From NCBI RefSeq assembly GCF_017348835.2, contig NZ_CP071375.1: DNA of 64,000 bases; one strand, given 5' to 3'. Below the pieces are notes generated by a model that saw nothing but the letters and a program-made list of their open reading frames with translations, made no database searches and was not told the DNA's origin. The stretch comes from Escherichia coli (GTDB lineage Bacteria; Pseudomonadota; Gammaproteobacteria; Enterobacterales; Enterobacteriaceae). Shown here piece after piece: positions 46,424 to 49,500 of the stretch (position 1 is its first letter; the number at the start of each line of letters is the position of its first letter). Position numbers and translations under genes: made by a program.

Positions 46424-46547
46424 ATCATGATTGGACGGTGTAAGGACAACACCAACAAAAACAGGAAGTTAGCAGTCTCAGCAGGACACCGACCAGACGG
46501 TGAGGAGACAAAAAAGGATACGCAAAGGAGCCGCGGCTCCTGGCGAC

Positions 46548-46576
46548 ATGAAAGCCCACAGATGTGGGCTTTTTCG
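46548..46576. terminator. Bidirectional hairpin terminator between ssrA and the convergent autotransporter gene
   Basis: Inverted repeat gaaagcccacagatgtgggctttttc. Confidence 0.55.
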
Positions 46577-46583
46577 TTGATGG

Positions 46584-49500
46584 TCAGAACGACCAGTTCA
46601 CACCAGCCACCGCGTTCCACGGGGATTCCACATCGGCACCGTTGCTATACCCCACCCCGAGATGCCCGCTTAACGTACTGCTGAATGAGGCTTTAATACC
46701 TGCCTGGTATATTCCACGTCTGCCCGACAAATCATTGACGAAATTACCGTCATTATTCACCTTCACCCGGTTATCATCGACAAATTCTTTGCGCACAGCC
46801 GCCTTCAGCCACGGCTCAACTTCCATACCGTTCCCCAGACGCATGTTGTAACTCAGCGTTGCACCCAGTTCACGATATATACTGCGGGTATCGACTGATT
46901 TCGATTCCATGCCATTGGATAAATGATATTCGGGGTTATCAGCGGTGAACCCCGTTAACGATGCATACGGCGTCAGGTTCCAGTTACCATCAGTAAATCG
47001 CATCCCGGTTTCAATGTGACCGCCCAGCCCGTTGCTGTGGTAACTGCCATTGGCGGCTCCACCGCTGCTCATTTTACCGGCTACGTTACTTTCAAAACGG
47101 TTCAGCTTCACGACACCGTCCAGATAGAAACCACTTTCATGTTCCCAACTGGCATAGCCGCCCAGAGAATAACTGCCCACACTGCCATGTCCTCCGCGAT
47201 CAAAACCGATATGTGAATGGGAATAACCCATAAAAGCGCCCAGCGTCGCAATCCCCTCAGGAATATCATTACGGCTGTCGATCCCCACTGTCATTCCGGT
47301 CAGCGTCTGCTCAAACCCGGCCCCCGCATCGGTGGTGACATTATTACGGGTGTTATACGTCGCCCCCCAGACATTATTGTTGTGTGAACTCGCTTTCATT
47401 ATGTTCAACCGCTCGCGAATACTGTTTAGCTCAGCATCAAATACCAACGGTAATGTTGCTGCCATATTGAGTACGGCTGCGGTAGAAGGCGTGATGCGTT
47501 TCTCCGGAACGGGTGTCGGCGTTGGCTCGGGAGTCGGGTCTGGTTTCGGATCCGGTTTTGGGTCTGGTTTTGGATCCGGCTTCGGATTTGGGTTGGGATT
47601 TGGGTTGGGATCCGGGTTGGGTTTGACATCATTGGTCAGGTTCCAGTTGCTGTTGCCATCGCTTTTCAGGACATACTCATAGGTCCCAAGATCAACGAAA
47701 CCGCCAGTATTGCCCAGCGAAAACGAAGCATCCCCTCCCCCTGTTTTCACCAGCGTCATCGCGTCGTCAGACTGAGGACTGACGCCGGTATCCTGAACAA
47801 AGATTTTAAAATTACCAGTGGCGTTGTTGCTGACGACCAGTTGATCACCGCGGGAGCCAGCAACGTTGGTATGCAGGTAGAAATTACCGCTACCGGAAAG
47901 TTCATTGGTTGTCAGCGTATTGTAGATACCGTTAGTTGTGGCAGGCGCTGCTGTTTGTGCTGATAAATAAACATCACCGTCGTTGAGTAGCAAACTGTTT
48001 ACTCTATATTCGCAGTTGCTGGTACCTGCACAGGAATTATTGCTGTTAAGCCAGACACTGCCCCGGCTGGCAGCCATCAGGTCGGCAAGCGTTGTATCGA
48101 CGCCATTTCCCAGAGTTAATGCCGCGCTATCGGTAATCCGGACCGCCCCTACGAGTTTAACTGGCGTAACATTATCCCGTGGCGTCATTAACGACAGGCT
48201 TCCTGTCGCGCCACTGACCGATGCATCCGCCAGCGTACCTGCGTAGACGATTGCCGTACCGCCAGCGACCTGGAGATCTTCTGCCCGGGCCAGAGCCTGA
48301 AACTCATCTTTTGACCGCCCAAGGGTATATTGCCCGCCAGAGTTAACCTTTGTAGCGGAGTCCTGACCCAGGTTTTGCATTGCACCACCCTTGCCAACCG
48401 TGGAGTAGCGAGCTTCGGTACCTGCTAATACCAATAAATTACCACCATTTTCCAGCAACATATTGGTCGCTAAATTTCCGGCAATGGAAAAGGTGCCGTA
48501 CTGGTGAGTACCGCTGATTTCAATACCGTTAGCTGTGCTCGTCTGGAGAGCGGCACCGCTGTTCTGGACGATATCTGTCGCTTTGCCATTATCATTGACT
48601 GTCAGCGTACCGCCTTCATTTATCGTTGTTTTTATTGCCTCACCGTTAGCCGAAACTGTTTGTATTCCGCCGTCGTTAATCGTTGTCTCATTCGCCACAC
48701 CCTCGACGATTTGTTCGCCGCCGGTGAGCGTCGTGCCTGTCGCAGTGGCTTTTATTTTGACGATCTCCCGTCCGCCCGTATTGACCTGTGTTTTGGCGGA
48801 AGTGGTGTCTGACTCCACGGTTAACACGCCGCCATTTGCCAGCAGGATATTGTTCGCCGCATCCTGCTCGATGCTGAACACGACGCCATCTGCGCGTGTC
48901 CCTGTGACACGCGTCGCCTTGGTGGTTGCAACCAACGCGCCCTGGCTACTCTGCTGTATCCCCGTTGCGCTGCCTTTCTCCCGCACATCGAGTGTGCCGC
49001 CGTCATTAAGCACCGAGTTTTCAGCCAGACCGCCCTCATTAACTACCTGTGAACCGCCATTAATAATGGAACCTTCCGCTGTCCCGTTTGCCATAATTTG
49101 TTGTAGGCCAGAGACGATATCGGTGTTGATTGCCTTACCATAACTCTGAACGGTTTGCGTGCCACCATTGATGTGTGTTTTATCTGTTGACCCACCATCA
49201 ACAATTTGTTCACCACTTTCGAAATTTGCCTCAGTGGCTAAACCATATACCGTTTGCTTGCCACCTTTGATATTTGCTTTATCAGAAGTGGCACTGGCAT
49301 ATATTGTTTGGGTGCCCGCACTATTAAGTACAGTGCCAACATCTTTTCCATAAACATCCATTTTGCCGTTGACATTAATAATCGTATCAACTGCCCGGGA
49401 ACCAGTGACGACTGTTAATGAGCCAGCGTTTTCCAGCACTACATTTTTAGCTTCTGAATTCCTGATGTAGAAAGCATCACCATAACTGTTGGTTCCTTCG

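Follow-up and report, generated by a model that had tools for sequence, protein, structure and literature searches.

The window, by which we mean the whole 64,000-nucleotide stretch of Escherichia coli DNA analysed here, carries a complete ssrA gene encoding tmRNA, which is followed by a short non-coding spacer and the convergent autotransporter gene ypjA. The features of this junction, with the evidence for each in brackets, are:

46061-46423, plus strand: ssrA, the tmRNA gene, complete (ARAGORN; Rfam RF00023, 292.8 bits, model positions 1-374)
46381-46423, plus strand: att-core region of ssrA, attB (identity with phage att segments; alignment with K-12 attL and attR and their annotation)
46424-46574, plus strand: native ssrA trailer, 151 nt, non-coding, with four stems and ending with the terminator T-run (alignments; fold z-score -4.0)
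46527-46540, no strand assigned: perfect 14-nt palindrome GGAGCCGCGGCTCC, hairpin 2 (fold; C-G pair replaced by U-A in KE48 and E1V33, a compensatory change)
46551-46574, plus strand: Rho-independent terminator of ssrA, AAAGCCCAC-AGAT-GTGGGCTTT and a T-run (fold -19.3 kcal/mol, z -4.5)
46584-51170, minus strand: ypjA (ehaD), intact gene for an AIDA-type autotransporter adhesin of 1528 amino acids (ORF list; PE164 annotation YpjA/EhaD)

The tmRNA gene is functional-looking: ARAGORN reads the tag ANDENYALAA, the full Rfam model is covered, and the sole difference from K-12 ssrA is a C instead of T at position 320, T357 being present. The last 43 nt of the gene are identical (43/43) to the att segments of P2-like phages, namely the Salmonella phages RE2010, SEN8 and SopEPhi, Cronobacter ESSI-2 and Escherichia phage Cartapus. 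The core likewise matches K-12 attL, and K-12 attR bar a 1-nt deletion; the CP4-57 attR match corresponds to the last ~23 nt of ssrA, and the annotated attR remnant, psaA, comprises 14 nt. Other E. coli islands have att duplications of 6, 14, 28 or 43 nt, according to the start points of the right-hand pieces in other genomes.

As ssrA ends at 46423 and the minus-strand ORF of ypjA has its stop codon at 46584, the spacer between the two convergent genes is exactly 160 bp long (46424-46583), in line with the ~160 bp given in the earlier note. The single hairpin described there has to be corrected, as folding revealed four stems, the last of which is the intrinsic terminator of ssrA, composed of GCCCAC (46554-46559), the loop AGAT, GTGGGC (46564-46569) and T5 at 46570-46574. 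A consensus terminator scan missed this plus-strand terminator although it is clear by folding, the T-run probably being taken up by the A/T extension of the stem. The scan did report a minus-strand terminator-like site (46535-46521) overlapping the 14-nt palindrome, and since the palindrome is followed by a T-run on the minus strand, this is a candidate terminator for ypjA. Alignments with KE48, E. whittamii, E1V33 and the ST131 attR showed two compensatory base-pair changes in the trailer, one in hairpin 2 and the other, from a G-C to an A-U pair, in the terminator stem. A coding role of the spacer was rejected, since in KE48 a stop codon interrupts the plus-strand ORF that begins at 46427, and an Rfam search of the spacer at permissive thresholds for known RNAs gave only sub-threshold chance matches (isrB 21 bits, rsmX 20 bits).

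Of the 160-bp spacer, the initial 151 nt make up a conserved trailer and terminator that belong to ssrA itself. In E. coli of phylogroup B2, and likewise in E. whittamii and Escherichia sp. E1V33, the trailer adjoins ssrA, and 46424-46574 is collinear both with the ssrA flank of KE48, E. whittamii and E1V33 and with the flank to the right of attR in K-12 and ST131. In all other arrangements of the locus (KE48, E1V33, E. whittamii, ST131 and phage LLS), homology to the window stops at the last T of the terminator, 46574.

P4-like, P2-like and lambdoid elements use tyrosine integrases that recombine within the 3' segment of ssrA, and the incoming element brings a replacement 3' end, the original one being displaced together with its trailer to the far side. 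At the K-12 locus, the 22-kb prophage CP4-57 (intA to ypjF) separates ssrA from psaA. The K-12 sequence to the right of attR/psaA is near-identical to 46424-46600 of the window and the spacer aligns base for base. Because this alignment begins directly right of the CP4-57 attR, the window represents the exact CP4-57-free attB, and the earlier proposal that the integration site is empty here is borne out by the precise absence of the 22-kb prophage. The two loci share position, flanks and core, with attL in ssrA and attR as psaA in K-12, and subtracting CP4-57 from K-12 yields the window junction. Unlike the window, K-12 carries the prophage and an attR copy that lacks T357, so that excision of CP4-57 in K-12 removes this nucleotide and inactivates tmRNA (PMC10107115). 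The window shows the K-12 ssrA as it would be without CP4-57 and with T357 kept.

Searches of the 64-kb window for a second ssrA 3' end returned only the gene itself when a 26-mer was allowed up to 3 mismatches. A 15-mer allowed 2 mismatches had one match, in gabD, attributable to chance (0.18 expected), and blastn-short gave nothing longer than 11 nt, in agreement with the earlier note. No second copy of the trailer was detected in the window, nor a copy of the 3' end of the downstream tRNA gene ileY, which would mark an ileY-targeted island. Annotation was taken from RefSeq strain PE164, whose sequence matches the window at 99.97-99.99% identity, and no tyrosine integrase is annotated across the equivalent PE164 stretch. 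The reported lack of an integrase is upheld to that extent; the earlier note had overlooked a pinH-like serine-invertase fragment, a weak IS3-like fragment next to it and, at about 26.1-27.4 kb of the window, a copy of IS4.

In E. coli and Salmonella, two integration hot spots are described as the most diverse, and the tmRNA site is one of them (PMC3603311). The P2-like ssrA phages of the Fels-2/SopEPhi/RE2010 group, found in Salmonella and other enterics, have an att segment equal to the last 43 nt of the window ssrA; no such prophage resides in the window. The ssrA-integrating lambdoid Escherichia phage LLS and a prophage of the ST131 strain 4993 carry their own 39-nt ssrA 3' end followed by a homologue of the 151-nt trailer, terminator included, with about 89-90% identity to the window spacer, and the phages Ayreon and Citrobacter phiNP share this ssrA 3' fragment and trailer in part. 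In LLS-type phages the order of ssrA 3' end, trailer and terminator is the same as in the window, but their trailer copy adjoins phage genes, with int across attP, whereas the window has a single trailer and then ypjA. Since these elements supply their own ssrA 3' end and trailer, ssrA running into the spacer is by itself no proof of an empty site. The emptiness of the window site therefore also rests on the presence of a single trailer copy, with no phage genes following it.

The stretch 46381-46574 very probably comprises the intact, unoccupied attB of E. coli ssrA, followed by the native 3' trailer of the gene. The CCA end passes directly into the 151-nt trailer, conserved across Escherichia species, and then into the Rho-independent terminator; it is continuous with this native flank, with no foreign DNA inserted between. 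Integration of an element would be expected to swap the ssrA 3' end and to displace the original one with its trailer, as in K-12 and ST131; at the window site such an integration would either never have happened or have been cleanly reversed. The window provides a clean wild-type attB sequence for ssrA-specific elements, which helps to mark island boundaries in other strains.

Empty ssrA sites are already known and nothing unusual; up to about half of all E. coli genomes have one. In junction-centred queries, ssrA ran directly into the spacer in no more than 2568 of the 5426 complete E. coli genomes, and the full ssrA-spacer-ypjA junction was present in 1385 of them. The figure of 2568 is an upper bound, because phages can bear the trailer and a second copy occurred elsewhere in the genome in 2 of 19 sampled full-length rows. 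A 7-kb query at ≥80% coverage retrieved 2582 genomes; the ypjA side makes up 87% of that query, hence this number measures the presence of the downstream block and not the emptiness of the site. The junction is accordingly valid as the reference empty site that the earlier note had suggested, although it is not special, 1385 complete genomes sharing it, and its importance is small beyond bookkeeping. For such bookkeeping, scoring occupancy solely by a native-looking trailer after ssrA leads to some occupied sites being called empty, because some prophages supply their own ssrA 3' end and trailer.

The site might also have been occupied once and then vacated by precise integrase/excisionase-mediated excision, which would make it empty now without being naive. 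We consider this rather unlikely for the window, despite the general behaviour of the site: at least 53% of complete E. coli genomes have an element in ssrA, these elements show at least five att-duplication lengths, turnover at the tmRNA site is known to be high (PMC3603311) and CP4-57 does excise in K-12 (PMC10107115). As site-specific excision is precise, an empty site and a vacated one are indistinguishable, and a vacated site, traceless by definition, finds no support in the sequence. Moreover, departure of a K-12-type CP4-57 with its degenerate attR would have left ssrA without T357, which the window retains.

Whether the empty attB also means an island-free region depends on what follows the terminator. 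Between 46574 and the conserved flank of glaH, the window harbours an accessory block with the following features in addition to ypjA:

46575-57333, no strand assigned: accessory block of 10,759 bp with ypjA, gene fragments, ypjCB, ileY and ygaQ (BLAST breakpoints; KE48 and Nissle 1917 annotations; GC content)
51578-51745, minus strand: pinH-like pseudogene, an internal fragment of roughly 140-170 bp of a serine DNA-invertase gene of the Pin/Hin/Gin type (RefSeq 'recombinase family protein, incomplete')
51708-51812, minus strand: possible IS3-family transposase fragment, a weak 21-residue peptide match (six-frame translation; NCBIfam transpos_IS3, E = 0.014)
52105-53559, minus strand: ypjCB, intact, 484 amino acids (NCBIfam Ecoli_YpjCB, 937.7 bits; K-12 annotation)
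54310-54385, minus strand: ileY, tRNA-Ile(CAU), inside the block (tRNA search; Rfam)
54945-57197, plus strand: ygaQ, alpha-amylase-family gene, intact, 750 amino acids, the last gene of the block (ORF list; PE164 annotation)
57334-58510, plus strand: glaH promoter region and glaH, the conserved right-hand flank (homology with the short ssrA-glaH form resumes)

Several of these genes differ in state from their K-12 counterparts. The window YpjA has 94.3% protein identity to that of K-12 (the longest minus-strand ORF there spans 46584-51299), ypjCB, with a GC content of about 32-36%, is split into ypjB and ypjC in K-12, ygaQ is a K-12 pseudogene, and ileY, called tRNA-Met by ARAGORN, is 1 nt different from K-12 ileY. 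Over 138 nt, the pinH-like fragment is 84% identical in nucleotides to DNA-invertase genes of phages (E = 7e-34), and it gives weak NCBIfam serine-recombinase matches. In K-12, a pinH pseudogene is annotated in the corresponding place, between ypjA and ypjB/ypjC.

The block has a GC content of 42.5% overall and 37.2% over 51171-57333, compared with 50.7% and 55.4% in its flanks; ypjA alone has 49.5%. It is missing from about 1100 E. coli genomes, among them Nissle 1917 and KE48, as well as from E. whittamii and Escherichia sp. E1V33. Where it is absent, the locus has a short form in which the ssrA terminator is followed by 333 unrelated bp and then glaH, and this 333-bp filler is common to the E. 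coli short form, E. whittamii and E1V33. With regard to the marks of a genomic island, the block displays presence/absence polymorphism and deviant base composition, and lacks a mobility gene and flanking direct repeats derived from a target RNA gene: no direct or inverted repeats of at least 8 nt were found at its ends, and no intact recombinase or integrase within it, only the invertase fragment and the weak IS3-like fragment. Like islands at tRNA and tmRNA genes, it varies between strains, has a low GC content, starts 151 bp behind a tmRNA gene, has a tRNA gene inside and contains recombinase and IS debris. Unlike them, it is devoid of an integrase and of direct repeats at its ends, its edge is located past the terminator and not inside the RNA gene, and it replaces 333 bp rather than being a plain insertion. 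Divergence of the flanks was considered as a sign of co-transfer with the block and found unconvincing, identity with KE48 being ~96% in both flanks and lower only in the last 50-300 bp.

The block is probably a strain-variable, low-GC, integrase-less segment inserted in place of the 333-bp ancestral ssrA-glaH stretch and not via the ssrA attB. The island-free configuration assumed in the earlier note thus holds for attB in ssrA, but 46575-57333, only 151 bp downstream, is a low-GC accessory block with mobile-element debris. An island-free reference for the whole locus is the short form (ssrA, terminator, 333 bp, glaH) of phylogroup B2 and cryptic Escherichia species, not the ypjA-bearing form.

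The opposite polarity, in which the ypjA-ygaQ block is ancestral core-like DNA, the short form is a derived deletion or replacement spread by recombination and the window keeps the original island-free state, appears doubtful. It would be in keeping with the nearly complete presence of the block in at least 2582 genomes, with its lack of an integrase and flanking repeats, and with the early-branching E. albertii, in which ileY and a ygaQ homologue precede glaH (the E. albertii ORFs upstream of ileY had no NCBIfam match, and no integrase was detected among them). However, this diverged E. albertii segment has only about 75% nucleotide identity, whereas the adjacent GlaH has 98% protein identity, and yet other cargo occupies the same place in other Escherichia genomes. 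Simple deletion cannot account for the short form, as the window contains nothing that corresponds to the 333-bp filler. Across three species, namely E. coli (phylogroup B2), E. whittamii and Escherichia sp. E1V33, the short form is collinear, and so is its filler. The GC content of 37-42%, the invertase and IS debris, and the fact that glaH is unlinked to ssrA in Citrobacter, Salmonella and relatives also speak against an ancestral block.

The pinH-like fragment bears on a further point, as an integrase fragment within the following kilobases had been named beforehand as the sign of a decayed island. Lying 5.2 kb downstream, it formally answers that description, yet it derives from a serine invertase and not from an ssrA-targeting tyrosine integrase, and it is situated beyond the native trailer, where remnants of most ssrA 3'-end elements are not expected. 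It is highly improbable that the site is the scar of a decayed LLS-type prophage that supplied its own ssrA 3' end, trailer and terminator and later lost the integrase, attR, native trailer and 333-bp filler by deletion, leaving ssrA, a phage-supplied trailer and some remnant or replacement such as ypjA and pinH'. In favour of such a scar, the left edge of the block (46574/46575) is the exact end of the phage-supplied segment in LLS and ST131 prophage attL, the ancestral filler is missing from the window and a phage-type invertase fragment lies a few kb from the trailer on the strand opposite ssrA, as fin does in LLS, but the shared boundary is explained more simply by the end of a selected ssrA-terminator module, the block genes (autotransporter, tRNA-Ile, amylase-family, DUF5507) are not phage-like, and K-12 shows CP4-57 entering an already window-like arrangement. 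Comparison of the block with the LLS-type and ST131-type prophages by blastn and tblastx found only the trailer and a generic invertase similarity (55% amino-acid identity over about 45 residues). In addition, the CCCAC/GTGGG terminator variant of the window and K-12 is absent from the phage copies and from the other native copies aligned, so nothing links the window type to a phage.

Tentatively, ssrA, the 151-nt trailer and the terminator could form one unit of selection and exchange, phages could spread trailer variants, and 46574/46575 might be a second, integrase-independent hot spot of replacement. Across Escherichia at least five cargoes follow the terminator, comprising the ypjA-ileY-ygaQ block, the 333-bp filler, the diverged E. 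albertii block and others in two further genomes, and some lambdoid phages have the whole cassette of ssrA 3' end, trailer and terminator copied in attP.

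The complete ssrA gene encoding tmRNA is followed in the window by a 4.6-kb ORF on the minus strand (stop codon at 46584-46586 in the ORF list), annotated as the adhesin-like autotransporter YpjA/EhaD in the chromosome of E. coli PE164, to which the window is 99.97-99.99% identical; the encoded protein shares 94% identity with YpjA of K-12. The distance of some 160 bp between the two genes, proposed in an earlier note, proved exact (46424-46583, with ssrA ending at 46423). The single hairpin placed there by the same note did not hold, as folding gave several stems:

46061-46423, plus strand, complete ssrA (ARAGORN and Rfam, tag ANDENYALAA, 292.8 bits)
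46437-46453, small stem (folding)
46475-46509, nested stem (folding)
46527-46540, perfect 14-nt palindrome (folding)
46554-46574, classical intrinsic terminator facing ssrA, GCCCAC-AGAT-GTGGGC followed by T5 (folding)

A terminator scan revealed a T-run after the 46527-46540 palindrome on the minus strand, thus this palindrome may serve as a terminator of ypjA.

In K-12 MG1655, ssrA is separated by the 22-kb prophage CP4-57 (intA to ypjF) from a 14-nt remnant of attR, annotated as psaA. Positions 46424-46600 align almost base for base with the K-12 DNA directly to the right of psaA, hence the window represents the precise CP4-57-less junction. Searches of the 64-kb window for a second ssrA 3' end returned only the self-match with a 26-mer allowing up to 3 mismatches, a single match in gabD with a 15-mer and 2 mismatches (0.18 expected by chance) and no match longer than 11 nt with blastn-short. 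Furthermore, no tyrosine integrase is annotated across the whole window equivalent in the near-identical strain PE164. The ssrA of the window differs from that of K-12 only at position 320 and, unlike the K-12 attR copy of the ssrA 3' end, keeps T357, implying that the attachment site (attB) is undamaged; excision of CP4-57 in K-12 was reported to leave an inactive tmRNA (PMC10107115). In addition, the last 43 nt of ssrA are identical to the att segment of the P2-like phages RE2010, SEN8, SopEPhi, ESSI-2 and Cartapus. The site is thus unoccupied, as had been claimed, and its intact attB can validly serve as the empty reference state for CP4-57-type and other ssrA elements.

The 151-nt trailer downstream of ssrA (46424-46574) is also found 3' of ssrA in KE48 (B2-type), E. 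whittamii and Escherichia sp. E1V33, and on the right-hand side of attR in both K-12 and ST131. Among the aligned copies, the first ~95 nt are nearly invariant, and compensatory double changes occur in the palindrome (C-G to U-A) and in the terminator (G-C to A-U). Homology to every other arrangement ends with the final T of the terminator (46574). From these alignments we read the segment as ssrA's own trailer and terminator. A coding function of the spacer (plus-strand ORF from 46427) was rejected, as a stop codon interrupts the ORF in KE48.

In the lambdoid phage LLS, a 39-nt ssrA 3' fragment adjoins int and leads into a 151-nt homologue of the trailer, with the terminator (88.8-90% identity); part of this segment is also present in phages Ayreon and phiNP. 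In the ST131 strain 4993, a ~45-kb lambdoid prophage resides between ssrA and glaH, with attL consisting of ssrA and the phage-supplied trailer, and attR of a displaced 36-nt ssrA fragment followed by the native trailer, a 333-bp filler and glaH:

PQ299149.1 26314-26504 (L087 3462-3652), phage LLS, ssrA fragment and trailer copy
L003 12000-12352 and L088 7870-8057, ST131 strain 4993, trailer regions

Lysogens of such lambdoid phages accordingly hold two trailer copies, with an attL resembling the empty site. Given the phage-supplied trailers of LLS and strain 4993, an ssrA-trailer sequence can also belong to a prophage junction.

For a 600-bp query with the junction at its centre, contiguous coverage was obtained in 1385 of the 5426 complete E. 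coli genomes. The 300-bp query (150 nt of ssrA and 150 nt of spacer) was covered in 2568 of them, an upper bound for empty sites because of such prophage junctions; a second copy was present elsewhere in the genome for 2 of 19 sampled full-length rows. The other genomes have a right-hand piece that starts 6, 14, 23, 28 or 43 nt short of the ssrA end; the site evidently serves several integrase families. These counts, together with the published ranking of the tmRNA site as one of the two integration hot spots of greatest diversity in E. coli and Salmonella (PMC3603311), show that an empty ssrA site is ordinary. Junction searches are confounded by a truncated autotransporter pseudogene beside minCDE, next to minE, in E. 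coli O111:H8 (L004 6011-6355), which matches the last 250 nt of ypjA at ~95% identity, the match starting exactly at 46574.

The earlier description of the region as island-free is valid for the ssrA attB but not for the locus, where a 10.8-kb low-GC accessory block follows the terminator. In KE48, Nissle 1917 and ~1100 E. coli genomes in all, 333 bp separate the terminator from glaH, and E. whittamii and Escherichia sp. E1V33 share this short arrangement, filler included. Homology between the window and this short form stops at 46574 and restarts at 57334, the intervening 10,759 bp being absent from short-form genomes; no counterpart of the filler was found in the window. B2 strains and cryptic Escherichia species show the locus in its most reduced form, ssrA-terminator-333 bp-glaH.

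46575-57333, block: ypjA; 39-aa ORF annotated 'ATPase'; pinH-like invertase fragment; weak IS3-like fragment; ypjCB; ileY; ygaQ

The GC content of the block is 42.5% (37.2% over 51171-57333) versus 51-55% in the flanks. Its annotation in PE164 includes no intact recombinase, and no repeats were found at its ends. A check for integrase or recombinase fragments downstream of ssrA did yield the pinH-like fragment, 5.2 kb away, which shows 84% identity with phage DNA-invertase genes across 138 nt and is the remnant of a serine invertase, not of an ssrA-type integrase. We lean towards an ancestral ssrA-glaH arrangement that gained the block by insertion or replacement, as somewhat more probable than the reverse direction. 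That the block is instead the remainder of an LLS/ST131-type prophage whose int-attR end was deleted would fit the boundary shared with the phage-supplied trailer segment and the invertase fragment, but is improbable: the block has nothing further in common with LLS or the ST131 prophage, its genes do not resemble those of phages, and the terminator variant shared by the window and K-12 was seen in none of the phage-borne or other native copies in the alignment.

The 39-aa 'ATPase' ORF and a 122-aa plus-strand ORF between ypjA and ypjCB (51235-51354, 51483-51851) had no NCBIfam match and are probably debris. Both ypjCB (52105-53559, 484 aa) and ygaQ (54945-57197, 750 aa) are intact in the window; K-12, by contrast, has ypjCB broken into ypjB and ypjC, and its ygaQ is a pseudogene. 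The tRNA-Ile(CAU) gene ileY is likewise missing from strains without the block. In the window, glaH (57533-58510) forms an uninterrupted ORF of 325 aa; in PE164 it is annotated as frameshifted, and the sole gap in the alignment of the window with PE164 is probably this frameshift.

In E. albertii, a segment upstream of glaH is ileY-ygaQ-like but diverged (~75% nucleotide identity), despite 98% protein identity of GlaH. Two further Escherichia genomes have different cargo there, one encoding a secreted-looking protein of 353 aa, the other a protein with ankyrin repeats:

L012 1-1331 and L013 1-2509, two further Escherichia genomes, other cargo upstream of glaH

The site immediately downstream of the ssrA terminator seems to be a general hot spot of replacement. 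In Citrobacter, Salmonella and relatives, and in the Pseudocitrobacter genomes L006, L008 and L011, the 10 kb upstream of glaH contain no tmRNA gene. GlaH of the latter is 97-99% identical to that of E. coli, compared with 86-91% for Citrobacter and Salmonella, a closeness that suggests either a recent exchange of the glaH-gab region or close relationship.

The ssrA integration hot spot, CP4-57 with its damaged attR and phages carrying the 3' end of the target RNA gene are already established. No description of the block polymorphism or of the phage-borne trailer was found in the literature searched, and both are unsurprising variants of known behaviour. Elsewhere in the window, an IS4 copy (~26072-27400, minus-strand 454-aa ORF) lies between raiA and bamD, likewise in PE164.
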